Assembly (NCBI GenBank): GCA_035517415.1
Contig: DATIYW010000113.1
Location: forward strand, 1 to 11,082
Length of the DNA stretch: 11,082 bases
Reading direction: 5' to 3'
Source of the DNA: Thermoanaerobaculaceae bacterium
GTDB lineage: Bacteria; Acidobacteriota; Thermoanaerobaculia; Thermoanaerobaculales; Thermoanaerobaculaceae
The translations under genes were made by a program, and so were the position numbers. Positions 1-11,082 of the stretch are shown here, one piece after another. How positions within the stretch are numbered: position 1 is the first letter of the stretch; every line of letters begins with the position of its first letter. Below the pieces are notes generated by a model that was not told the origin of the DNA, did no database searches, and saw only the letters and a list, made by a program, of their open reading frames with translations.

Positions 1-1
1 G

Positions 2-133
2 GAGACGGGTTTCTTGCGGGATTTACTCTTTGTTCGGAGCGGTCATCCCGTCGAATTCGAGGTTCTGGCCGCGGCCGACGTTGGGAAGGTGCCGAGAGCG
101 TGGCGAACGATCCGGCTAGTGCCGCAGCGCTAG
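2..133 (+). CDS. Possible 3' end of an upstream gene-cassette ORF (partial, runs off the left edge)
   Basis: Frame 2 is open from the window edge for 43 codons (…ETGFLRDLLFVRSGHPVEFEVLAAADVGKVPRAWRTIRLVPQR*). The TAG at 131-133 lies 8 bp before the attC-like inverse core at 141-147, the same stop-then-attC arrangement seen for the VOC ORF. Codons are visibly AT-richer (tta, ttt, gat, cat) than the backbone. No homology recognised. Confidence 0.3.
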   Translation, partial: ETGFLRDLLFVRSGHPVEFEVLAAADVGKVPRAWRTIRLVPQR

Positions 134-140
134 GGGGGTT

Positions 141-238
141 GCCTAACATGCCGTTGCAGCCGTCCCACTCGGCTGTCACGCCGCTTGCGTGCGCTACAGG
201 CGCGCCAGCCAGCGGGCGGCTGAATGGCGGCGTTGGGC
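141..238 (+). other. attC-like recombination site (integron cassette-associated), copy 1
   Basis: GCCTAAC (141-147) fits the inverse core RYYYAAC, and GTTGGGC (232-238) fits the core GTTRRRY. The two are near-complementary (GTTAGGC vs GTTGGGC). The outer ~22 bp arms are imperfect inverted repeats with unpaired bases, GCCTAACATGCCGTTGCAGCCG versus the reverse complement of CGGCTGAATGGCGGCGTTGGGC. Total length of 98 bp is within the attC range. It sits between an ORF stop (131-133) and the next ORF start (282). Confidence 0.55.
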
Positions 239-281
239 AGCGTAGGGCGTCAGTCACAAACGTAGAGGCGAGAGGAAGAAG

Positions 282-710
282 ATGAGCAAGAAAGCAGAAG
301 GAGAGTTCAAGGTCCTATTTGTCGCTGGGTTCGGTCCCATTGTCCAAGACATCCCCAGCTCCCACAAGTTCTATGTGGATGCTCTCGGCTTGTCCTTCCA
401 GAAGGAGGCGGGAGACTATCTACACACAGAGAAATTGGAAGGCGCCATGACTTTTGCTCTCTGGCCGCTTTCGCAGGCAGCACAATCCTGTTTTGGGTCA
501 GAGATCTGGCCATCGGACCTTCCGGCACCTCAAGCATGGCTGGAGTTCGACGTTGATGACATTGAGCGGGCCAGCACAGAACTACAGAGAAGTGGATATA
601 GGTTGTTGTCGAGAGCACAGAAAGAGCCGTGGGGACAGATTGTTACTCGTTTGCTCAGTCCCGAGGGCATATTGGTCGCGGTCACTGTTACGCCGGCGAT
701 GCGCAGATAG
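282..710 (+). CDS. VOC (glyoxalase/bleomycin-resistance/dioxygenase) family protein; probable integron cassette ORF
   Basis: 142-aa ORF with a VOC-like C-terminal motif (FDVDDIERASTELQRSGYRLLSRAQKEPWGQIVTRLLSPEGILVAVT). An AG-rich SD, gagaggaagaag, lies just upstream of the ATG. GC is markedly lower than neighbouring genes, with many A/T-ending codons. It is flanked by attC-like repeats, and its stop at 708-710 is ~15 bp before copy 2. Confidence 0.8.
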   Translation: MSKKAEGEFKVLFVAGFGPIVQDIPSSHKFYVDALGLSFQKEAGDYLHTEKLEGAMTFALWPLSQAAQSCFGSEIWPSDLPAPQAWLEFDVDDIERASTELQRSGYRLLSRAQKEPWGQIVTRLLSPEGILVAVTVTPAMRR

Positions 711-724
711 TCACTATGTCGGGC

Positions 725-815
725 GCCTAGCCAGCGCTTGCAGCCATTCCACTTGGCTGTCACGCCGCGTGCGTGCGCAACCCGCGCGCTGACCGGCGGC
801 GGTGCGACGGGCAAC
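725..815 (+). other. attC-like site, copy 2 (degenerate; probable terminal attC of the array)
   Basis: It is an imperfect direct repeat of 141-238: GCCTAGC…GCTTGCAGCC…CCACTTGGCTGTCACGCCGCGTGCGTGCGC…GGCGGCGG…GGGC. The inverse core has one mismatch (GCCTAGC). The core-site region reads GGTGCGACGGGC, so GTT has become GGT with a ~5 bp insertion. The end coordinate is approximate. Confidence 0.4.
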
Positions 816-944
816 GGCGGGCGAGACGATGACCCACGCTGAGGGCCGCACTCCGGTTCTCCGAGAGGCCCTCGCCACCTGTCGGGAGCCGGCACGGCGT
901 GGCGATCCGGCGGCGAGGAGCGGGCGAGTCGGCTGGACCGTCCC

Positions 945-1928
945 TCAGTCGTGCGCGCCGGCGCCCCGGAGCGCTGCCTCGATCTCCTTCTTGCTGAAGA
1001 TCTTCGCGAACATCAGCGGGGTCGCGCCGCCGGGCGCCTTGGTGTTGACGTTGGCGCCCGCCTTGATCAGCACGTTGACGATCTCGACCCCGGTGCAGTG
1101 CTGCGCGGCGGCGAGCAGCGGCGTGATGCCGTTCTTCGCGCCAGCATCGACCTTGGCGCCCGCCGCGAGCAGCGCCTTCGTCATCTCCAGCGCCTCGGCC
1201 TCGTGCTGGTAGGCGCACTGCGTGACCGCGGAGGCGAGGGGCTGCTGGTCGGAAGGTCCCGGCTGGTTCGGCGACATGCCGAGCTTGAGGAAGAGGCCGA
1301 CCGCCTCGACGTTGGAGTCGCTCACCGCGTGCATGAACATCTCCGGGTTGTACTCGTAGCCGAGCTTGCCGAGCCGCACCTTCATCTGCGTCTTGGGGTC
1401 GCCCGGCGCGGCCTCCGCGGCGGCGGCCGGCTCCTCCGCCTCGGGCTCCAGCTCGAGCGTGCCGCCCGGCTGGATCGCGGCCTTCACCTTCGCCTGGAAG
1501 AACCAGCTCTGGCCCAGCATCTTGGACTGTATCGAGCCCTCGAACCGTGCCCCGTCGTAGCGCTCGAGGTCGATCGACGGGTGCTCGACGCCGCGCTTGC
1601 CGCTGTCCGGCAGTCCCAGCGCGTACGGCACCGCGACGACGCGGTCGAGGCCCTCCGCCCAGAGGACGCGCACGGCGCGCAGCTTGCCCGCCGCGGCCAG
1701 CTCGGCGAGGCGCGCCGGGGTGCGGTCGCCGGGCGCGACCGGCGCATCGCTGGCAAGCACGACCAGCCACGACTCCGACGGCGTGTCGGGGTCCGCCTGC
1801 TTGGAGACCGCGACGCTCTTGAGCGCGATCGGCTTGCCGTTGACGGTCAGGGTGCCGACCACCGAGTCGGCGGCCAGCGTGGCGGTGGCGAAGAGGCCGG
1901 CGATGACTGCAGCCCACAGGTGTCTCAT
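945..1928 (-). CDS. Secreted ankyrin-repeat protein
   Basis: ATG at 1928 (MRHLWAAVIAGLFATATLAADS…) is preceded by GGAGGA, and the N-terminus is signal-peptide-like. The C-terminus carries two clear ANK repeats (NGITPLLAAAQHCTGVEIVNVLIKAGANVN; GGATPLMFAKIFSKKEIEAALRGAGA). The track ORF begins 4 codons earlier, but that ATG overlaps the SD. The ~200-aa N-terminal region is unassigned. Confidence 0.75.
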   Translation of the reverse strand: MRHLWAAVIAGLFATATLAADSVVGTLTVNGKPIALKSVAVSKQADPDTPSESWLVVLASDAPVAPGDRTPARLAELAAAGKLRAVRVLWAEGLDRVVAVPYALGLPDSGKRGVEHPSIDLERYDGARFEGSIQSKMLGQSWFFQAKVKAAIQPGGTLELEPEAEEPAAAAEAAPGDPKTQMKVRLGKLGYEYNPEMFMHAVSDSNVEAVGLFLKLGMSPNQPGPSDQQPLASAVTQCAYQHEAEALEMTKALLAAGAKVDAGAKNGITPLLAAAQHCTGVEIVNVLIKAGANVNTKAPGGATPLMFAKIFSKKEIEAALRGAGAHD

Positions 1929-2000
1929 CGGTTCCTCCATCCGGGACGCGGGTTCGCGGCGCGTGACCGGAATTCTAGCGCAGGCGCCGCGCCGACGGCG

Positions 2001-3725
2001 TCACGACGGGAGGCGGCCGGCGCGGTAGGGGTAGAAGCGCGGCGTCCACTGCGCGCGGCGGATCAGCGCCGCCAGGCCGTCGTCGTCGAGGAGGCGCCCG
2101 AGGCCCGCCCGCCGCGCCTCGATCGCCACCGCCCGCGCGACCGTGAACGCGACCTCGCCGATCGACTCCATGCGCGGCAGCAGCAGGCCTTGGGCGAGCT
2201 CCTGCGGCGTGACCATCGCTGCGAGCGCCTTGGCGCCCTCGACGAACATGCGGTCGGTGATGCGCGCGGCGCGCGAGACCAGCGCGCCGAGGCCCACGCC
2301 CGGGAACATGTAGAGGTTGTTGCACTGCGAGATCGCGATGCGGCGGTCGTCCCACGGCACCGGGTCGAACGGGCTCCCGGTCGCCACCAGCGCGCGGCCG
2401 CCGCTGGCGCGCAGCGCTTCGAACGGCGTGCACTCGGAGCGGTCGGTCGGGTTGGAGAGCGCGAGGATCGCCGGGCGCGGGTCGTTGGCGGCCATCTGCT
2501 GGAGGATCTCCGCGTCGAAAAGCCCGCGCATCGCGGTGTAGCCGATCAGCGCGGTGGCGCGCGCGTTGCGCACGACGTCGGCGAGAGCGATCCGGTCCGG
2601 CGCGGCGAGCTTCCAGGTCGCGACGACGCCGCGTGGCTGGGCGAACGGCCGCTGCGCCTGCTCGAGCGCCGGGTCGCCCTCGACCAGCAGCCCCTGCCGG
2701 TCGACGGCGAAGATGCGCCGCCGCGCCTCCTCGTCGGGCAGCCCGTCCTCGACGAGGATGGCGCGCAGCGCCTCCGCAGTGCCGATCCCGGCCTGGCCCA
2801 TGCCGGCGATGACGAAGCTCTGCTCGGCGAACCGGCTGCCCTTGATCCGCATCGCCGCCAGCAGCGCGGCGCAGGCGGTGGCTCCGGTGCCCTGGATGTC
2901 GTCGTCGAACGAGAGCACGCGCTCGCGGTAGCGCGCGAGCAGGCGGAACGCCTTGTCCTTGGCGAAGTCCTCCCACTGCACCAGCGCGTCGGGGAAGTTG
3001 CGCTTGACGCCGAGCACGAAGCGCTCGACGAAGCGGTCGTACTCGTCGCCGGTCAGGCGCGGCCGGCGGGTGCCGAGGTAGAGCGGGTCGGCGAGCAGGC
3101 GCTCGTTGTTGGTGCCGACGTCGAGGCAGACCGGCAGGCAGACCGCCGGGTGGATGCCGCCGGCGGCGACGTAGAGGCTGACCTTGCCGACCGGGATCCC
3201 CATGCCGTCGGCGCCGAGGTCGCCGAGGCCGAGGATGCGCTCGCCGTCAGTGACCACCATCAGCCTCACCTCCGGCGCGGGGAGGCTCTGGAGGATCCTG
3301 TCGATGTTGGCGATGTTTTCCGGGTGGAAGTAGATCCCGCGCGGGCGCCGCATGATGCGCGAGAGCAGCATGCAGGCCTGGCCGACCGTCGGGGTGTAGA
3401 CGATCGGCAGCATCTCGGTGAGGTTCTCGGCGAGGACCTGGTAGAACAGCGTCTCGTTGCGGTTGAGCAGGCCGAGCAGGTAGAGGTAGCGCTCGAGGTC
3501 GTCGGGCTTGCGGCGGTACGACTCGAGCGCGCGCGCCGCCTGCTCCTCGATGTTCGAGACGCCGGGGGGGAGCAGGCCGGAGAGCTCGAGCGAGGTGCGC
3601 TCCTCGAGCGTGAACTGCGAGCCCTTGTTGAGCAGCGGGTCGGCGATCAGCTGCTGGCCGCGCAGGTAGACCTCGTAGTACTCCTCGCCGGTCAGCGGAT
3701 CGATCTTGAACGAGAAGCTCTTCAT
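2001..3725 (-). CDS. maeA: NAD(P)-dependent malic enzyme (malate dehydrogenase, oxaloacetate-decarboxylating)
   Basis: It starts MKSFSFKIDPLTGEEYYEVYLRGQQLIADPLLNKGSQFTLEER…, the malic-enzyme N-terminal domain. The nucleotide-binding GAGxAG-like motif (VIAGMGQAGIGTAEAL) and the rest of the fold are recognisable throughout. ATG at 3725 is preceded by a G-rich SD. The 43 upstream codons in the track ORF are Arg/Ser-rich and judged non-coding. Confidence 0.85.
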   Translation of the reverse strand: MKSFSFKIDPLTGEEYYEVYLRGQQLIADPLLNKGSQFTLEERTSLELSGLLPPGVSNIEEQAARALESYRRKPDDLERYLYLLGLLNRNETLFYQVLAENLTEMLPIVYTPTVGQACMLLSRIMRRPRGIYFHPENIANIDRILQSLPAPEVRLMVVTDGERILGLGDLGADGMGIPVGKVSLYVAAGGIHPAVCLPVCLDVGTNNERLLADPLYLGTRRPRLTGDEYDRFVERFVLGVKRNFPDALVQWEDFAKDKAFRLLARYRERVLSFDDDIQGTGATACAALLAAMRIKGSRFAEQSFVIAGMGQAGIGTAEALRAILVEDGLPDEEARRRIFAVDRQGLLVEGDPALEQAQRPFAQPRGVVATWKLAAPDRIALADVVRNARATALIGYTAMRGLFDAEILQQMAANDPRPAILALSNPTDRSECTPFEALRASGGRALVATGSPFDPVPWDDRRIAISQCNNLYMFPGVGLGALVSRAARITDRMFVEGAKALAAMVTPQELAQGLLLPRMESIGEVAFTVARAVAIEARRAGLGRLLDDDGLAALIRRAQWTPRFYPYRAGRLPS

Positions 3726-3755
3726 GACGCCCCCCCGGAACTCCGTCAGCCTGCG

Positions 3756-3769
3756 TCGCGATCGCGACC
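3756..3769. promoter_or_regulatory. 14-bp perfect palindrome GTCGCGATCGCGAC; candidate operator in a divergent promoter region
   Basis: It is a perfect inverted repeat, read directly. It lies ~30 bp upstream of the malic enzyme start and ~65 bp upstream of the DUF1697 start. An extra half-site TCGCGAC sits at 3782-3788. A -10-like TATGAT at 3799-3804 is positioned for the + strand cluster. Confidence 0.45.
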
Positions 3770-3835
3770 AGCATACTCGCTCGCGACCGGCGCTCGGGTA
3801 TGATCCGCGTCGCAAGCCAGGAAGGGAACGCGGCA

Positions 3836-4378
3836 ATGACGAGGTGCGTCGCACTCCTCCGTGCTGTCAACGTCGGCGGCCGCAAGCCGGTCGCGATGGC
3901 CGACCTGCGCCGGCTCGCCTCGGACCTTGGCTTCGCCGAGCCGCAGACCCTGCTCCAGAGCGGCAATCTCGTCTTCACCTGCGGCGACGGCGAGCTGCCC
4001 CACGCCGAGCGCCGCCTGGAGCGCGAGGCCGCGGAGCGCCTCGGCCTGACCACGGAGGTGTTCCTTCGCACCGCGGCGGACCTCGACCGGGTGATCGCGC
4101 GCAACCCGTTCCCCGAGCAGGCGGCAGGCGATCCCGCCCGCCTCCACGTCGTGTTCCTGCGGCGCGCGCCCGACCGGGCCGGCGTCGAGTCGCTGCGAGC
4201 GGCGATCACCGGCCGGGAGGTGGTCGCGTACGGAGGCCGCGAACTCTACGCCGTCTACCCCGAGGGCGCCGGTCGTTCGCGCCTGACGCTGCCGCTGATC
4301 GAGCGGCGCCTCGGCGCGCACGGCACCGCGCGCAACTGGAACACCGTCCTCCGCCTCGCGGCCGCGGTGCGGTCCTGA
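3836..4378 (+). CDS. DUF1697 family protein
   Basis: MTRCVALLRAVNVGGRKPVAMADLRRLASDLGFAEPQTLLQSGNLVF… matches the characteristic DUF1697 N-terminus (LLRGINVGG…V.MA.LR…LGF..V.T.IQSGNV.F). ATG at 3836 has GAAGGGAA 7 nt upstream. The earlier ATG at 3800 in the track lacks an SD. Confidence 0.75.
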   Translation: MTRCVALLRAVNVGGRKPVAMADLRRLASDLGFAEPQTLLQSGNLVFTCGDGELPHAERRLEREAAERLGLTTEVFLRTAADLDRVIARNPFPEQAAGDPARLHVVFLRRAPDRAGVESLRAAITGREVVAYGGRELYAVYPEGAGRSRLTLPLIERRLGAHGTARNWNTVLRLAAAVRS

Positions 4379-4398
4379 CCGGCCGGCGCCAAACGGCT

Positions 4399-4953
4399 AT
4401 GATCTCGACGCGGCGACCGATGACGGCGAGCGATCCGACCCCGAGTGGGGCGGCGATCCGTTGGCCGGCGGCGTTCGAGCCGAGCCGCAGCCCGGTCCAC
4501 GTCCGCAACCAGATCGAGATCGCGGCGAGCGCGGAGCGCGTGTGGGCCTGGCTCGTGCGCGCCGAGCGCTGGCCCGAGTGGTACGCCAACTCGCGCGACG
4601 TGCGCTTCCTCGCCGGGCGGCCGCCCGACCTCGCGCCCGGCGCGCGTTTCCGCTGGCGCACGTTCGGCGTGCGGATCTCCTCGCGCGTGCTCGAGTTCGA
4701 GCCTCCGCACCGGCTCGCGTGGGACGCCCGCGGCGTCGGCGTGCGCGCGTACCACGCCTGGCTGCTGGAGGAATCGTCGGGCGGCTGCCGCGTTCTCACC
4801 GAGGAGACGCAGCGCGGGTGGGTGGCTCGCCTCGGCGCGCGGCTGATGCCCGCGCGGATGTGGCGGGGACACCAGCTCTGGCTCGAGTCGCTGCGCGATC
4901 GCGCGCCGGCGGACGCGCCCGACCGGGTCGAGCCTCCCGGTCCGATCGGATAG
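4399..4953 (+). CDS. SRPBCC (Bet v1-like / polyketide cyclase-dehydrase-like) family protein
   Basis: The C-terminal part of the long track ORF 3706..4953 carries the SRPBCC-like core (HVRNQIEIAASAERVWAWLVRAERWPEWY…RFRWRTFGVRISSRVLEFEPPHRLAWD…). The start is uncertain: ATG at 4399 or 4420, both with weak SD. Everything upstream of ~4399 in that frame overlaps DUF1697 in another frame and is rejected. Confidence 0.6.
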   Translation: MISTRRPMTASDPTPSGAAIRWPAAFEPSRSPVHVRNQIEIAASAERVWAWLVRAERWPEWYANSRDVRFLAGRPPDLAPGARFRWRTFGVRISSRVLEFEPPHRLAWDARGVGVRAYHAWLLEESSGGCRVLTEETQRGWVARLGARLMPARMWRGHQLWLESLRDRAPADAPDRVEPPGPIG

Positions 4954-4961
4954 GAGGCGCC

Positions 4962-5333
4962 GTGGAACAACTGGAGCATCCGGAGCACTCGCAAGCGCGG
5001 CGGTCCTGGCATCTCGCCGGGCACATGGTGTCGCGCGGCTACGCGCTGCTGCCGCTGGCGCTCGGCACGCTCGCGGCGGGGATGGCGATCTACCACTGGG
5101 TCGAGGGGCTGGCCTGGCCCGACGCGTTTCTCAACGCGGCGATGCTGCTCGGCGGGATGGGGCCGGTCGACCAGCTCCACACCACCGCCGGCAAGTGGCT
5201 GGCGGGCTTCTATGCGCTGTTCGCCGGCGTCGTTTTCCTCGTCCTCGCCGGCGTGATGCTCGCCCCGGTGCTCCACCACGTGCTGCAGCGGTTCCACCTC
5301 GAGACGGCGGAGAAGGGCGCCCGGAAGGGATGA
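4962..5333 (+). CDS. Small hypothetical membrane protein (two predicted TM helices)
   Basis: GTG at 4962 follows AGGAGG (4952-4957), which overlaps the upstream TAG stop (4951-4953), suggesting translational coupling. Hydrophobic segments are ALLPLALGTLAAGMAIYHW and WLAGFYALFAGVVFLVLAGVMLAPVL. The alternative ATG at 5025 has no SD. No family recognised. Confidence 0.5.
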   Translation: MEQLEHPEHSQARRSWHLAGHMVSRGYALLPLALGTLAAGMAIYHWVEGLAWPDAFLNAAMLLGGMGPVDQLHTTAGKWLAGFYALFAGVVFLVLAGVMLAPVLHHVLQRFHLETAEKGARKG

Positions 5334-5379
5334 GCGCTCGGCGCCGGCGCGAGCCCGCTCGCCCCGTTGGCGGCCGCCG

Positions 5380-5817
5380 TTGAGGCTCTGGACGCTCCAT
5401 CCGCGCTACCTCGACGCGCGCGGCCTGACCGCGGTGTGGCGCGAGGCGCTGCTGGCGCAACGGGTGCTGCAGGGCCTCACCCGCGGATACCGCTCGCACC
5501 CCCAGCTCGAGCGCTTTCGCGCGCAGCCCGACCCGGTCGCCGCGATCGCGGCATACCTCGTCGGCGTGCTCGAGGAGGCGACCGCGCGCGGGTACCGCTT
5601 CGACGCCGCCAGGGTCGTGGCGCCGCCGTCGCGCCGGCGGATCGACGAGACCGAGGGCCAGCTGCGCCTCGAGTGGCGGCACCTGCTGGCCAAGCTCGCG
5701 GTCCGGGCGCCGGAACTGGCTGACCGCTTCCGCCGCGTCGACCTGCCCGAGGCTCACCCGCTCTTCCGCATCGTCCCAGGGGAGCGCCGCGAGTGGGAGC
5801 GCGCGCCGGCGAACTAA
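5380..5817 (+). CDS. Pyrimidine dimer DNA glycosylase-like (Pyr_excise family-like) protein
   Basis: The N-terminus MRLWTLHPRYLDARGLTAVWREALLAQRVLQGLTRGYRSHPQLERF matches my recollection of the conserved MRLWSLHP.YLD..GL.A.WREALLAQ start of bacterial proteins annotated as pyrimidine-dimer DNA glycosylase. The ORF uses a TTG start with no clear SD. Family membership is from memory and needs a profile search. Confidence 0.5.
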   Translation: MRLWTLHPRYLDARGLTAVWREALLAQRVLQGLTRGYRSHPQLERFRAQPDPVAAIAAYLVGVLEEATARGYRFDAARVVAPPSRRRIDETEGQLRLEWRHLLAKLAVRAPELADRFRRVDLPEAHPLFRIVPGERREWERAPAN

Positions 5818-5837
5818 AATCGGCGCGGGAGGGGACG

Positions 5838-6326
5838 ATGGAAGCTGCCGTCGACACTGCGCGCGAGCTGCTGCGGCACACCCTGGCGACGCTTGCCTAC
5901 CGCGGCGGGAAGGCGGTGCGCGGCGCGCCGCCGGAGTTCGCCGCGACCCGGTTCGGCCAGGGCAGCCGGACGCCCGGCGAGATCCTGGCGCACGTCGGCG
6001 ACCTGCTCGACTGGTCGCTGTGGCTGGCGCGGGGCAAGCACGTCTGGCACGACTCGCCGCCGCAGGGCTGGGACCTCGACACGGCGCGCTTCTTCGCCGC
6101 CGCGGGCGCCCTCGACGCGCTGCTCGCCTCGAGCGTGCCGCTGGGGTGCCCGATCGAGCGGCTGTTCCAGGGTCCGATCGCCGACGCGCTCACCCACGTC
6201 GGCCAGATCGCGATGCTGCGGCGCATGGCGGGGGCGCCGATCCGCGGCGAGAACTACTTCAAGGCGGAGATCCACGCTGGCCGCGTGGGCGCCGAACAGG
6301 CCGCGCCGGTGCGCGAGTTCGACTGA
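5838..6326 (+). CDS. DinB/YfiT-like (DinB_2 superfamily) putative metal-dependent enzyme
   Basis: ATG at 5838 is preceded by GGGAGGGGAC. The protein has the DinB-like layout: LLRHTLATLAYR…, a His-containing ILAHVGDLLDW, and C-terminal ALTHVGQIAMLRR, which resembles the H..HRGQ…LR motif. The track ORF starts 15 codons earlier without an SD. Confidence 0.6.
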   Translation: MEAAVDTARELLRHTLATLAYRGGKAVRGAPPEFAATRFGQGSRTPGEILAHVGDLLDWSLWLARGKHVWHDSPPQGWDLDTARFFAAAGALDALLASSVPLGCPIERLFQGPIADALTHVGQIAMLRRMAGAPIRGENYFKAEIHAGRVGAEQAAPVREFD

Positions 6327-6351
6327 GTCGGACGCGCGCAGCTGCACCGCT

Positions 6352-6378
6352 CCGGCGACTCCAGCGCGACCTCGCCGG
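6352..6378. terminator. Candidate bidirectional terminator hairpin between convergent genes
   Basis: CCGGCGA (6352-6358) and TCGCCGG (6372-6378) form a 7-bp GC stem with a 13-nt loop. It lies between the DinB-like stop at 6326 and the reductase-like stop at 6397. There is no U-tract, which is common in high-GC genomes. Confidence 0.25.
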
Positions 6379-6396
6379 CGAACGGGCTCGGATGAG

Positions 6397-7050
6397 CTAC
6401 TTCCGCAGCAGCTTGAACGCGTGGTCCCAGCTGTTGGTGCGGATGCCGTAGAGCACCCACAGGATGCACATCGGCTCCAGAAGCCTCGCGCCCTCGATGC
6501 CACCGAGGTCGATGGTCGGCCAGCCGAACTCCTTGAGGATGGTCGTCACCACCGCCTTGGCGTCCGCGTCGTTGCCGGCGATGAGCATGTCGGGCGGGCC
6601 GCCCGGAAAGCTCGGGTTCACCATGTGCGCGAACCCGACGGTGTTGAACGCCTTCACCACCCGCGACTCGGGCAGCCAGCGCTGCACCTGCTCGCCGCCC
6701 GAGTCGTTGTGGCCGAGCGCCAGCGCGGGCGGCGCGTTGGGCGCGAACACGAGGGGGTTGGTGGCGTCGATCACGACCTTGCCGGCGAGGTGCTTCGGGT
6801 TGGCGAGACGGATCGCGCTCTCGGTCCCGCTCCACAGCGTCGCCAGCACCACCACCTCGCCGAACTTCGCGGTCTCCGCGAACGTGCCGGCGGTGGCGCC
6901 GTGGCCGACCTTCGCCAGCATCGCCGTGACCTTCTCGCTGCCGGGCTCGCGCGAGCCGACCTTGACCTCGTGACCGTGCTTCGCGAATCCGGTCGCCAGC
7001 GACCGCCCGACGTCGCCCGTGCCCAGGATCCCAATCCGCGATTTGGCCAT
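6397..7050 (-). CDS. NADP oxidoreductase, coenzyme F420-dependent family (NADPH-dependent F420 reductase-like / dinucleotide-binding) protein
   Basis: MAKSRIGILGTGDVGRSLATGFAKHGHEV is a Rossmann GxGxxG N-terminus typical of the F420_oxidored / ProC-like family. ATG at 7050 has GGAGG 6 nt upstream. The track uses a TTG two codons earlier. Confidence 0.7.
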   Translation of the reverse strand: MAKSRIGILGTGDVGRSLATGFAKHGHEVKVGSREPGSEKVTAMLAKVGHGATAGTFAETAKFGEVVVLATLWSGTESAIRLANPKHLAGKVVIDATNPLVFAPNAPPALALGHNDSGGEQVQRWLPESRVVKAFNTVGFAHMVNPSFPGGPPDMLIAGNDADAKAVVTTILKEFGWPTIDLGGIEGARLLEPMCILWVLYGIRTNSWDHAFKLLRK

Positions 7051-7146
7051 CGTCAACCTCCGGACGGGAGAACACCCGGCGCCGCCGCCAATTTCCCGAT
7101 CCGAGAGCCCAGCGATGGGCCGGATTCGTCGCGATGACGCGCGAGC

Positions 7147-7163
7147 GTGGCGGAGGGGAGGAG
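7147..7163. repeat. Direct repeat of the tRNA-Ser 3' end (18-bp identity CGTGGCGGAGGGGAGGAG at 7146-7163 and 7187-7204)
   Basis: Exact match, read directly. The repeated segment covers CCA, the discriminator, the acceptor 3' strand and the start of the T-stem. The copies are 41 bp apart. Confidence 0.7.
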
Positions 7164-7188
7164 CCTGCGGGGCGATGCGGCGCCGCCG

Positions 7189-7276
7189 TGGCGGAGGGGA
7201 GGAGGTTCGAACTCCTGAGGGCTTGCACCCTGCCAGTTTTCAAGACTGGTGCCTTCGACCGCTCGGCCACCCCTCC
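7189..7276 (-). tRNA. tRNA-Ser (anticodon UGA), class II with long variable arm, encoded CCA
   Basis: Reverse complement: GGAGGGGTGGCCGAGCGGTCGAAGGCACCAGTCTTGAAAACTGGCAGGGTGCAAGCCCTCAGGAGTTCGAACCTCCTCCCCTCCGCCA. The acceptor is 7 bp (GGAGGGG/CCCCTCC) with discriminator G. It has a 3-bp D-stem with a long D-loop, and an anticodon stem CCAGT/ACTGG around loop CTTGAAA (anticodon TGA). There is a long variable arm and a T-loop TTCGAAC. It is very similar to E. coli tRNA-Ser(UGA). Confidence 0.93.
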
Positions 7277-7443
7277 GCAGGCGCGGGCAGCATAGGTCCG
7301 CCACGGAGCAAGCTCAAGCCGGACGGCGTGGGACCGAATGGGGCTCAACCGGGGCGACGCCCCCGCGGGCGCGAGTGGCTCTGCCGGGAGAGATCGTGCC
7401 TCGCCAATCCGGACCGCAGCGGCCGCGGCTGAGCCGCTCCGAG

Positions 7444-7851
7444 CTAGCCCTCCGACTCGGCGATCAGGCGCTTCGCGAAGGCCGCCTGGCTCTCCGGTAC
7501 GAGCAACCGCGTGCACGTGGCCCAGTCCGTCTGACCGTCGAAGTCGCGGCCGTCGTCGAGGAACTCGATCACGACGACGCCGTTCGCCGCGAGCAGCGCG
7601 AGCGCCGGCCCGGCGTCGTCGCGGCTGTCGAACGCCGCCACCGCCACGACCTGCTCGGCGACCGGCGGCACCTGCTCCGTCTCCGGCGCCGCGTCGAGCT
7701 GGATCTCAGCGCGTGATGCGGCCGACTGCACAGCGGCCACCTCCTCGACCAGCGTTGCGCCGCAGATCGGGCAGACCGTCACGCCGTCGACGTATTCGCC
7801 GTGGATGCGGCTCTCGACGAAATCCGGGCACTCGCGGTTCGGGCAGAACAC
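7444..7851 (-). CDS. Zinc-ribbon + DUF2007-like small protein
   Basis: GTG at 7851 is preceded by GAGGAGG with a 5-nt spacer. The N-terminus has a Cys4 ribbon (CPNRECPDF…CPICG). The C-terminus (VAVAAFDSRDDAGPALALLAANGVVVIEFLDD…CTRLLVPESQAAFAKRLI) resembles DUF2007, the putative signal-transducing fold. It lies 50 bp downstream of the flotillin-like gene on the same strand. Confidence 0.6.
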   Translation of the reverse strand: MFCPNRECPDFVESRIHGEYVDGVTVCPICGATLVEEVAAVQSAASRAEIQLDAAPETEQVPPVAEQVVAVAAFDSRDDAGPALALLAANGVVVIEFLDDGRDFDGQTDWATCTRLLVPESQAAFAKRLIAESEG

Positions 7852-7900
7852 CGGCGCCTCCTCGTGTCGATCTCGGGTGGCATCTGACCGCTCGACTCGC

Positions 7901-10030
7901 TCACGTCGCGTCGATCTCGCGCTCGGCCGAGTCGTCGATCGACTCGGGCGTGGCGCCCTGATCCGGGTCCTCCGCGCGGGCGAAGCGCCGCGCCAGCTCG
8001 GCGGCGAACCTCTCGAGGTCCTCGAGCCCCTTCGGCGCGTCGGTGGGGCTCAGTCCGGTCCTCTCCGCCAAGAGGATCGCGATCAGCTGCGTGAACACGT
8101 TCGCCACGCCCGGCCCGCCGCCCTCGGCGCCGCCTCCCATCGTGAACAGCCGCTCCGGCACGATCGGCTGGGCGCTGTGGGCGAACTGGTCGGCGACGAG
8201 CGAGAGCGCGAACAGGCGCGGGTCGCCGTAGGCGCGGATCTTCTGCAGGAATACCGCCGCCTCCGACAGGCCGGTCTGCGCGATCCTGGCGCCCTCGCCC
8301 TTGCCGAACAGCTCCTTCGAGCGCGCCTCGCCGAGCGCGCGGACGACGTCGCGCTTGGCCAGCCGCCGCGCCTCGGCCAGCTGCGCCTCGCCGCGGTTGC
8401 CGGAGATCGCCACGTCGACCTGGGTCTGCGTCAGCTCGGTCTGCTTGTCGGCCGAGGCGCGCGCGTCGTTCAGCTCGCGGAGCTGCTTGGCCGCCTCCTC
8501 CTGCTTGGCGAAGGTCTGCTTCTGCTCCTCGGCGAGCCGGCGGGCGCGGAGCTGGTCGAAGAGCAGCTCGATCGGGTCCTGCTGGCCCTCGGGGACGCGC
8601 GACTCCGGGCGTCCGATCAGCACCGCGATGCAGTTGATGTCGTACTCCTGGAAGCGCCGCCCGAGCTCCTCGGTGGCGCGCTTCTGGATGTCCTCGCGCT
8701 TGGTCAGCAGGTCGAGCATGTGCGAGCTCTGCGCCACGTCGCGGAAGTACGACGAGAGGATCGGGTCGAGCGTCTGCGAGATCAGCCGGCGCACGTCGCC
8801 GAAGCGCTGGATCACCGACGGCGCCTTCTCGTAGTCGATGTGGAGCACGAGGGAGAGCGGCAGCACCGGCTCGTAGCCGTCCGCGGTGATCAGGTCGATG
8901 CTGGTGAGGTCCTTGTCGTACTGGTGCTCCTCGGCCTGGCCGGTGATCCAGCGCAGCACGAAGTTCACGGTCGGAACCAGCTCGACCTTGAGCGCGTAGG
9001 GGTTCAACGGGTACTTGCCGGGGGCGAGCGCGCGCTTCCACACGCCGCGCTGGCCGGCCTCGACCTGCTCGCCGTAACGGAACCCGGTGCCGGTGACGTC
9101 GGCGCCGCGCCCGCCGAAGTACGACACCACCACGCCGACGTAGCCGATCGGGATGAGCGTCTTGGGATTCATCTCGACGGTGGCGAACCAGCGGTTGAGG
9201 AAGAACGTGCCGTCGGTGAGCACCTGGAGCTGCTTGCCGCGGCGTCCGCCGAGCGCGAGGAACGCCTCGGGGTCCTGGAAGTAGTTGTGGTCCGTCTCGC
9301 CGTGGGCCGGCTTGACCTCGGGGGCGATGATCTCGGAGGTCTCGATCGGCGGCCCGTCCTGCACCGTCACCACGCCGATCGTGTCGGTCGCGGTGATGCG
9401 GATGTCGGCGCCGCCGACCGCGCGGTCCGCGCCCGCCGCCGCCTCGCGGCCGCCGTGGCCGACGATCACCGGCGTGAAGCCGCCGATCGCGCGGAGCTGG
9501 CTCTGCCACTCCGCGTACTTCGCCCCGTGCTCCTGGATCGGGCCGGAGTACACGCGCTCCTCGGTGATGACGACGAACTGCGCCAGGTTCACGGCGAAAA
9601 CGCCTTCACGGAGGATCGCGCGCTGGCGGCCGCGCTGGCCGCCCTTGGTCAGGAAGCCGCGCGCGTCCTGGAAGTGGTTGCCGTCGGCGATCCGTCCGAG
9701 CGTCTGGGTCGGCGGCAGGGGAGAGCCGTCGCGGGCGTAGACGTAGCCGATCCGGCTCTCCGCGATCATTACGAGCGGCTCCCGGTGGACGCGGTACTGC
9801 CAGGGGAAGTAGCCGAAGTGCAGGCCGCCGCGGAGGATCTCGGCCTGGAACCCGGCCTCGCCGTCGAGCGCAATGATCTTGCCGGACTTGAGCGAGCCCT
9901 TCGCCGACCAGTACTTCTCGATGATGCCGACCTTGTTGTGCGGGATGTAGCGGAGCCCGAGCAGCCACTTGAGCAGAATCAAGCCGACGACCACGCCGAT
10001 CGGGACGTACGCGATAGGGGGTATGGGCAT
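7901..10030 (-). CDS. Flotillin-like SPFH/Band-7 domain membrane protein (large, ~709 aa)
   Basis: ATG at 10030 (MPIPPIAYVPIGVVVGLILLKWLLGL, an N-terminal TM helix) is preceded by AGGAGG. An SPFH-like core runs …SIDLITADGYEPVLPLSLVLHI…LDPILSSYFRDVAQ…DINCIAVLIGRPE. The C-terminus is Glu/Ala/Gln-rich and coiled-coil, typical of flotillins. The upstream part of the track ORF (to 10441) is low-complexity and overlaps the divergent promoter, so it is rejected. Confidence 0.65.
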   Translation of the reverse strand: MPIPPIAYVPIGVVVGLILLKWLLGLRYIPHNKVGIIEKYWSAKGSLKSGKIIALDGEAGFQAEILRGGLHFGYFPWQYRVHREPLVMIAESRIGYVYARDGSPLPPTQTLGRIADGNHFQDARGFLTKGGQRGRQRAILREGVFAVNLAQFVVITEERVYSGPIQEHGAKYAEWQSQLRAIGGFTPVIVGHGGREAAAGADRAVGGADIRITATDTIGVVTVQDGPPIETSEIIAPEVKPAHGETDHNYFQDPEAFLALGGRRGKQLQVLTDGTFFLNRWFATVEMNPKTLIPIGYVGVVVSYFGGRGADVTGTGFRYGEQVEAGQRGVWKRALAPGKYPLNPYALKVELVPTVNFVLRWITGQAEEHQYDKDLTSIDLITADGYEPVLPLSLVLHIDYEKAPSVIQRFGDVRRLISQTLDPILSSYFRDVAQSSHMLDLLTKREDIQKRATEELGRRFQEYDINCIAVLIGRPESRVPEGQQDPIELLFDQLRARRLAEEQKQTFAKQEEAAKQLRELNDARASADKQTELTQTQVDVAISGNRGEAQLAEARRLAKRDVVRALGEARSKELFGKGEGARIAQTGLSEAAVFLQKIRAYGDPRLFALSLVADQFAHSAQPIVPERLFTMGGGAEGGGPGVANVFTQLIAILLAERTGLSPTDAPKGLEDLERFAAELARRFARAEDPDQGATPESIDDSAEREIDAT

Positions 10031-10127
10031 GATGCCTCCTGAGAAAACACCGTTGCTGATGGCGATTCTACTCCCTCCGCCGCGAGGCGCGGCGCGCGCG
10101 TCCCGCCCTGCACTACACTGCGCCCCC

Positions 10128-11045
10128 ATGACCGTGCTCGCCGGGCTCGTCCCGGTCTTCCTGCTGCTGGTTGTCGGCGTCGTCGCCCGGCGCTTCGGCG
10201 TGCTCGACGATCCGGCCGCGAATGGACTGAATCGGCTGGTCACCAACGTCGCCCTGCCGGCGCTGTTCATCTCGACCGTCGGCACCGCGCCGCTCGAGTC
10301 GGCGTTTTCGCCGCCGGTGATCCTGGCGACTTCGCTCGCGTCGGTGGCGATCGCGGCCGCGGCGCTGCTCGTCGCGCGCTCGTGGCGGCTGCCGGCGAAC
10401 CAGCGCGGCGTGATGGCGCAGGCGTCGCAGCGCGGCAACATCGTCTACTTCACTTTCCCGATCATCCTTGCGATGTACGGTCAGAGCGGGCTGCAGCTGG
10501 CGGCGGTGACCTCGACGCTGCTGATCCCGGTGATGAACCTGCTCGCGGTCGGATCGCTCGAGCTGCACCGTGCGCCGTCGAAGGGCAAGGCACACTTCCT
10601 CGTCCGAGTCGTCGCCAACCCGTTGGTGTCGAGCGCGCTGCTCGGCCTGGCGCTGGCGGCGGTCCACTGGCGCCCGTGGGCGTGGCTCGACAACGGGCTC
10701 AAGATCCTCGCGGGGCTGGCGTTCCCCGGGGCGCTGCTCGCGCTCGGGGCGCAGCTCGAGGTGGGGAAGTGGCGCGCCTACGCCCGCCAGCTCGGCGCGG
10801 TCGGCGCGCTCAAGCTGGCGGCGATGCCGGCGCTCGGCTGGTGGCTGCTGATTCTGCTCCACGCCTCGCGCCGCGACACCGCGATCGGCGTGCTGCTCCT
10901 CGCGTCGCCGACCGCGGTGGCGAGCCACTCGGTGGCGGCGGACCTCGGCGGCGACATCGAGCTCGCCTCCGCCTGCGTGCTCGTCACGACGATCGCGTCC
11001 GTGGTCACCTACGCCGCCTGGAGCCTGCTGCTCGGCACCCGCTGA
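10128..11045 (+). CDS. AEC (auxin efflux carrier) family transporter / malate-permease-like
   Basis: The N-terminus MTVLAGLVPVFLLLVVGVVARRFGVLDD…LVTNVALPALF is typical of AEC-family permeases. It is multi-TM throughout. ATG at 10128 has no obvious SD. The upstream part of the track ORF (from 9969) overlaps the flotillin-like start and promoter. Confidence 0.7.
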   Translation: MTVLAGLVPVFLLLVVGVVARRFGVLDDPAANGLNRLVTNVALPALFISTVGTAPLESAFSPPVILATSLASVAIAAAALLVARSWRLPANQRGVMAQASQRGNIVYFTFPIILAMYGQSGLQLAAVTSTLLIPVMNLLAVGSLELHRAPSKGKAHFLVRVVANPLVSSALLGLALAAVHWRPWAWLDNGLKILAGLAFPGALLALGAQLEVGKWRAYARQLGAVGALKLAAMPALGWWLLILLHASRRDTAIGVLLLASPTAVASHSVAADLGGDIELASACVLVTTIASVVTYAAWSLLLGTR

Positions 11046-11070
11046 CGCCGGCGTCGGTGTCCCGTAGAAT
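11043..11070 (+). promoter_or_regulatory. Candidate sigma70-like promoter pointing out of the right edge
   Basis: TGACGC (11043-11048), a 16-nt spacer, then TAGAAT (11065-11070). Pattern only; the downstream gene is not in the window. Confidence 0.25.
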
Positions 11071-11082
11071 GGCCTCGTGTCC

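Follow-up and report, generated by a model that had tools for sequence, protein, structure and literature searches.

The left end of an 11,082-bp contig from a Thermoanaerobaculaceae bacterium (Acidobacteriota; GenBank contig DATIYW010000113.1) appears to hold the distal end of an integron-type array of gene cassettes in the chromosome, a reading to which we assign a probability of roughly 0.9. The window analysed here is the entire contig at its full length, and the contig end falls inside the array. The proposed array covers positions 1-822 and would consist of, in this order, the tail of a cassette open reading frame (ORF), a first attC site (attC1, 141-238), a VOC/glyoxalase cassette (233-822) with its own decayed attC site (attC2, 725-822) and, to the right, the chromosomal backbone. 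The two sites are copies of a repeat that forms an attC family; this family makes up cassette arrays, is linked to the integron-integrase gene intI in another genome and has a hairpin backed by covariation. The GC content of the backbone is ~72% and drops to 53-63% at the left end of the window.

Preservation of the two attC-type repeats

A repeat search of the window returned a direct repeat of 109 nt (130-238 versus 714-822) with 71% ungapped identity, and a MAFFT alignment of the two copies gave a mean column identity of ~81%. The copies are homologous and 98 nt long each, with limits refined by family comparison to 141-238 and 725-822 and a start-to-start distance of 584 bp. Generally, attC sites are ~55-140 nt in length, lie directly 3' of a co-oriented ORF and are repeated at cassette spacing. 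Both window sites agree with this in length, placement and spacing, the ORF stop codons at 131-133 and 708-710 being located 7 and 14 nt ahead of copy 1 and copy 2, respectively. This confirms the ORF-attC-ORF-attC layout proposed by a first-pass annotation that had been made from the sequence alone. The repeat pair claimed by the same annotation is real as well: a covariance model built from copies in other genomes (R1, see below) scores the two copies at 98.8 and 29.4 bits, while the next-best match anywhere in the 11 kb reaches 16.5 bits. Its limits for copy 1 were correct and those for copy 2 were too short, the repeat reaching 822 instead of ~815.

With filters off, R1 matched attC1 on the minus strand (138-241, 98.8 bits, E = 5e-23), the same interval giving 37.1 bits on the plus strand, and attC2 was also matched on the minus strand (722-825, 29.4 bits, E = 1e-5). 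An attC covariance-model match, as anticipated by the annotation, is thus strong for copy 1 and weak for copy 2 with this family-specific model. No further R1 site is present to the right of attC2 within the window.

attC1 is a well-preserved member of the family, identical to its consensus at 91 of 98 positions and retaining 34 of the 38 hairpin pairs. Its R'' box GCCTAAC (141-147) and R' box GTTGGGC (232-238), both already recognised by the annotation, correspond to the canonical RYYYAAC and GTTRRRY motifs, with one C-A mismatch in the R helix between them, and bulged bases are located at 156, 163 and 169 on the R''/L'' arm. The site is written here on the top strand, and folding and recombination are expected of the minus strand. 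As single-stranded DNA, this bottom strand is predicted to form one long imperfect hairpin of -33.1 kcal/mol (z-score -2.8, none of 200 shuffles folding as well); for the top strand, the fold amounts to -32.3 kcal/mol.

attC2 is a relic that marks where the array ends distally. Agreement with the consensus is down to 72 of 98 positions, and 25 of the 38 pairs remain (13 lost). At the R'' position, GCCTAGC has lost the AAC triplet and at the R' position, GGCGGGC has lost the GTT triplet, and the fold is no better than that of shuffles on either strand (z-scores of 0.2 and -1.0). The R-box motifs and the bottom-strand hairpin of an attC site are thus found in attC1 and are both missing from attC2. 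The annotation's hairpin of ~22-bp outer arms around a variable centre has to be replaced by a near-continuous 34-bp L stem and a 4-bp R helix, the centre being highly conserved in the family. Base changes in attC2 have converted 9 of the 24 consensus A/T sites to G/C and 11 of the 78 G/C sites to A/T, a pattern that would be compatible with drift toward the high GC content of the host.

Following the established integron mechanism, from which we infer the recombination competence of attC1, the inactivity of attC2 and the presence of an integrase in this genome, the single-stranded bottom strand of attC1 would adopt an imperfect hairpin built of an R-box helix, unpaired spacer nucleotides and an L stem bearing extrahelical bases. 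This hairpin would be recognised by an integron integrase, which would cleave the R' box between G and TT (top strand), leading to cassette excision and re-insertion. By analogy, attC1 seems to retain all that is needed for recombination, and attC2 would no longer be recognised or cleaved. As attC2 has lost one third of its pairs along with both triplets (AAC and GTT), the VOC cassette is probably not excisable; it has probably been immobilised and is becoming a fixed chromosomal gene.

An attC family in acidobacterial genomes

The 24-nt core conserved in the repeat was used to scan 185,579 species-representative genomes and identified 11 loci, ten of which are from Acidobacteriota/Terriglobia metagenome-assembled genomes (MAGs) and carry the full repeat. 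Similarity among these ten loci begins at RYYYAAC and ends 98 nt further on at GTTAGGY, with unrelated flanks on both sides. The remaining locus, from a Gemmatimonadaceae genome (L003, 2910-2933), contains the exact 24-nt core without attC flanks or a model match and was rejected as a chance match in GC-rich DNA. R1 was made from 17 repeat copies from other genomes, which have a mean identity of 94%, and the window sequence was excluded. The bottom-strand consensus structure calculated with RNAalifold consists of a 4-bp R helix (CTAA/TTAG), a 4/3-nt unpaired spacer and a 34-bp L stem, with single-base bulges at columns 86, 79 and 73, all located in the 3' arm (R''/L'') of this strand. Such an architecture is well established for attC sites.

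Mapping R1 onto the fetched loci revealed 10-11 same-strand matches per 8 kb, 450-700 bp apart (L002, L008 and L009), which form length classes of 101, 104, 107 and 120 nt. Of 29 spacers, 27 have their longest ORF on the cassette strand, where it takes up most of the spacer length. When 31 bottom-strand matches were aligned, 97% of the cells were in standard pairs versus 22-40% with slid partners, and compensatory double changes were present in 14 of the 38 pairs; none of 500 shuffles attained the values observed in this 31-sequence alignment. Rfam has no attC family, and its sole match in the window is a tRNA. Two of the array loci, L008 and L009, belong to one contig (CAVSFQ010000022.1), and some cassettes appear to be present twice in this large array, different attC copies having identical flanks. 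For example, there are L008 2598-2731 and L009 6670-6803 sharing a downstream cassette start.

The link to an integron integrase comes from L002. The left edge of this locus encodes the 3' 271 codons of a gene scoring 410 bits on the 'integron integrase' model TIGR02249 (cutoff 265). The gene product carries the IntI-specific insertion, and the gene, which shares its strand with the cassettes, lies ~600 bp ahead of the first attC. The L002 integrase, first detected with an IntI1 tblastn query, was confirmed independently with NCBIfam. Among the loci searched with tblastn, an integrase was detected only in L002, and no IntI-like sequence was found in the window. The L002 integrase gene (1-816, plus strand) is transcribed toward the array (attC matches at 1418-7694) and is therefore 'inverted', not divergent as in class 1 integrons. 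In 'inverted integrase' integrons, as in Treponema denticola, intI is transcribed in the same direction as the cassettes. L002, with the only integrase found beside this attC family, resembles these systems in that the gene lies on the cassette strand and points at the array. This arrangement is known from L002 as a single locus, whose edge truncates the integrase gene.

Chromosomal site and cassette contents

The closest named homologs of the malic enzyme encoded in the window backbone are from Thermoanaerobaculales and other Acidobacteriota. One relative, represented by locus L013, has a malic enzyme gene with 88% nucleotide identity. Window 1-233 aligns to L013 14968-14736 at 89% identity. 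In the window, this unit is the penultimate cassette, of which the 3' end of an ORF for a hypothetical protein remains (2-133, plus strand, 43 codons and stop, GC 0.635), the rest being cut off by the contig end. L013 contains the full 137-aa ORF (14836-15249, minus strand) followed by the orthologous attC, which scores 76.6 bits with R1. Read in window orientation, a DUF4160/DUF2442 unit and a RibD_C unit with attC-like ends lie ahead of the shared unit in L013. Behind it, genes of the abhydrolase, RibD_C (with a short attC remnant) and TonB_C types come next, and then the malic enzyme gene. At least three further cassette-like units are located to the left of the shared cassette, in line with the leftward continuation of the array proposed by the first-pass annotation, and the L013 contig likewise ends inside the array. 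The array is thus found at the same chromosomal site in two lineages, which have one cassette in common by descent, carry different distal cassettes and show decay of attCs. The L013 sites suggest progressive decay of the distal attCs in this lineage. With its conserved site in L013 and a housekeeping-type backbone (malic enzyme, tRNA-Ser), the array has the setting of a sedentary chromosomal array.

The last cassette extends from the attC1 core TTGGGC to the end of the decayed attC (233-822, plus strand, ~590 bp), as judged from the limits of homology to other VOC cassettes and from GC content (0.535 for 242-721 versus 0.72 for the backbone). It encodes a 142-aa VOC/glyoxalase/bleomycin-resistance-fold protein (282-710, plus strand; PF00903, 4.5e-9; PF12681, 1.2e-8) with an AGGA-type ribosome-binding site ahead of the ATG. 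The protein exactly matches database entry P0121, 'VOC family protein [Thermoanaerobaculaceae bacterium]' (NCBI HUK12826.1). A scan of window 1-1000 returned no sigma-70-like promoter or intrinsic terminator. There are thousands of homologs of the VOC protein; the closest share 77-88% amino-acid identity and are mostly found on very short contigs. Some close homologs are encoded in MAGs of Ca. Sulfotelmatobacter and Verrucomicrobiota, and the DNA of the ORF is 81-84% identical in four such loci. In L016, L017 and L018, which carry homologous VOC cassettes in other phyla, the similarity begins at ~window 232 with the GTTRGGC core, takes in the 5' leader and ends at ~window 718, a few bases past the stop, with sequences diverging outside. 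Because of these limits, the conserved VOC unit appears to represent the cassette minus its attC, as would be expected of a cassette moved between arrays of differing attC types. Next to the VOC homologs in L014, L016, L017 and L018, no attC of the present family was detected with R1, which is family-specific and blind to other attC types. VOC homologs are located in runs of small same-strand ORFs that resemble cassette arrays with a different attC type (L014 5864-11282, L018 9502-13696 and L017 7774-10841). The left-cassette protein is rare, with five relatives in the protein database, one of which (P0243) is encoded within a different acidobacterial array, ahead of an attC match. Metagenome scans returned neither a relative of this protein nor a match to the first 40 nt of the window.

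Two loci from one ENA sample, L012 and L021, represent a near-identical strain. L012 carries an identical malic enzyme and is 99.5% identical to window 1027-11082; it starts at 1027, so that the repeats are not covered. L021 (797 bp) corresponds to window 152-885 with 6 mismatches in 734 nt and includes all private attC1 substitutions, the VOC cassette, the attC2 relic (two single-nucleotide polymorphisms relative to the window) and the junction. To the left of 152, L021 is unrelated to the window, carrying GTCTAACAGCG in place of the window's GCCTAACATGC as well as the end of another upstream ORF; comparing L021 1-63 with window 89-151, the R'' box, the spacer and everything upstream differ. 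The breakpoint is therefore located at the R''/spacer end of attC1 and not at the IntI crossover point (between G and TT, window 232/233). This suggests that either near-identical attCs recombined homologously or the assembly is chimeric across the repeat.

To the right of attC2, the array is followed by an intergenic junction (823-944) with a GC content of 0.748, no R1 match and no homolog in L013. In agreement with the first-pass annotation, the VOC cassette is the last one before the backbone, no attC being located to its right, where GC rises to 72%. The first backbone gene, outside the array, encodes an ankyrin-repeat protein (945-1940, minus strand; Pfam Ank_2, 2.8e-10) and is followed by an NAD-malic enzyme gene (2001-3854, minus strand; 574-aa product according to P0001). 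A tRNA-Ser gene (anticodon TGA; 7189-7276, minus strand) is also part of the backbone and unrelated to the array. The ankyrin gene is 79% identical to L013 8894-9830 at the nucleotide level and thus more diverged between the window and L013 than the malic enzyme gene (88%). The order of the two genes is swapped on the same relative strand, being array-ankyrin-malic enzyme in the window and array-TonB_C-malic enzyme-ankyrin in L013 (window 945-3854 versus L013 8830-11725).

Alternative readings and comparison with known integrons

Several observations weigh against an integron-type array in window 1-822. No integrase or attI is visible, the contig ends inside the array and no longer version of it was found. 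Only attC1 is intact among the two window sites, and its first bulged base is a C on the bottom strand; the extrahelical bases described for model attC sites are G and T. The window sites were evaluated with a family-specific model (R1). It should be noted that the covariation alignment was fitted to the model and that most of its double changes are contributed by a single subclass (6-7 sequences), corresponding to few independent events. In L013, the R boxes of the orthologous attC are mutated to GCCTGGC and GTCAGGT, and the attC-like sites at 12795-16032 are shortened (~55-65 nt) or have mutated R boxes. Because these R boxes are mutated and the neighbouring sites fold no better than shuffles, the array may be largely inactive in this lineage. 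A related question concerns the state of the element and not its nature. In the usage attributed to IntegronFinder (Cury et al. 2016), a cluster of attC sites lacking an integron integrase is reportedly termed a CALIN, and we see a nearly even chance that the array is such a CALIN or fossil, that is, vertically inherited, with its integrase lost in the lineage, its attCs decaying one by one and its cassettes fixed as ordinary genes. The decay of attC2, the missing R-box triplets in the L013 ortholog of attC1 and the shortened, shuffle-like other L013 sites all argue in this direction, as does the absence of intI within 10 kb of the array in L019. Further, the shared cassette has diverged to about the same extent as the backbone (89% versus 88%), pointing to vertical co-inheritance since the lineages split. 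However, attC1 is nearly intact, with 91 of 98 consensus positions and canonical R boxes, and the strain with a 99.5% identical backbone differs upstream of attC1, which suggests recent rearrangement. Absence of intI is also not demonstrable from a contig ending inside the array.

The nature of the repeats could be questioned as well, given that repetitive extragenic palindromic (REP) sequences, miniature inverted-repeat transposable elements (MITEs) or other dispersed palindromic elements may flank a small gene by chance without any link to integrons. The window repeats share with such elements a GC-rich imperfect palindrome of ~100 nt with several copies per genome, and copy 1 shows little difference in folding energy between its two strands (-33.1 and -32.3 kcal/mol). 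We nevertheless consider this explanation extremely improbable and reject it on the basis of array organisation, namely strictly same-strand tandem copies with one co-oriented ORF per 300-700-bp spacer. The boundaries of the repeats coincide with RYYYAAC and GTTRRRY boxes, an integron integrase adjoins one array, and no copy is present in the remaining 10 kb of the window. The first-pass annotation had named a repeat scattered around genomes without regard to ORF boundaries as the contrary case; elsewhere, the copies of the repeat instead follow one another on the same strand in arrays, an ORF on that strand occupying 27 of 29 spacers, and one array lies beside the integrase in L002. It is also rather unlikely that copy 2 is a truncated attC whose 5' two-thirds were joined to unrelated backbone by deletion or illegitimate recombination. 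Such an event could explain why copy 2 matches the consensus at 54 of 65 positions in its 5' part and at only 18 of 33 in its 3' part. However, 18 of 33 matches in exact register lie ~3 standard deviations above the background mean for 33-mers (10.3, standard deviation 2.6), a value reached by 0.4% of them, and the terminal GGGC and GGC..CGG blocks are kept in the MAFFT alignment. Because in-register identity exceeds background, the 3' third of attC2 appears to be a mutated attC arm and not foreign sequence.

Within the preferred reading of an integron-type cassette array, a more specific scenario can be put forward tentatively, although we regard it as doubtful. In Thermoanaerobaculaceae, a vertically inherited array at a conserved site may be fossilising from its distal end, decay of terminal attCs (partly through high-GC drift) locking cassettes such as the VOC gene in place and the still-similar attC repeats reshuffling cassettes via homologous recombination and not via IntI cleavage. 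If this is true, the hybrid attC1 between 99.5%-identical strains would be a trace of homologous reshuffling, its breakpoint not lying between G and TT.

The array resembles the sedentary chromosomal integron arrays of Vibrio (VCR) and Xanthomonas in having near-identical attCs within and between related genomes, one small same-strand ORF per cassette, a cassette GC content unlike that of the backbone, a conserved site and attC hairpins in which R boxes, an unpaired spacer and bulges can be recognised. It differs from them in that the visible cassettes are limited to the last two, that intI and attI are not seen in the window and that the terminal attC is decayed. The host of the window has a GC content of 72%, whereas the reference arrays of this attC type are located in other acidobacterial MAGs of ~63-65% GC. 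Similar to a CALIN, the contig lacks an integrase and has its two attC-type sites within 4 kb of each other; unlike in a CALIN, the missing intI is only an effect of the contig end. attC2 would probably fail a functional attC model, and a standard run might report a single attC and not a CALIN.

The first-pass annotation had described sedentary chromosomal integrons of high-GC genomes as poorly catalogued, which is overstated, as taxon-specific attC covariance models including one for Acidobacteria have been published (Ghaly et al. 2021, PMC8352920) and reused (PMC9176274). Because these models include Acidobacteria, acidobacterial chromosomal attC families are already a recognised class, and the window is a new instance of it from a Thermoanaerobaculaceae MAG with a decayed terminal site. 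The current understanding of integrons remains unchanged by this array, which adds a documented integron cassette array in the class Thermoanaerobaculia. Its points of interest are an attC type kept across acidobacterial classes, the conserved chromosomal site, the distal decay and the hybrid attC1. One 98-nt attC type is common, at more than 90% identity, to distantly related acidobacterial MAGs of very different GC content, and this sharing implies that Acidobacteriota of soils and sediments have a cassette pool and an integrase specificity in common. Together with the orthologous array in a relative, the decayed terminal attC provides a small but concrete example of cassettes becoming fixed chromosomal genes.

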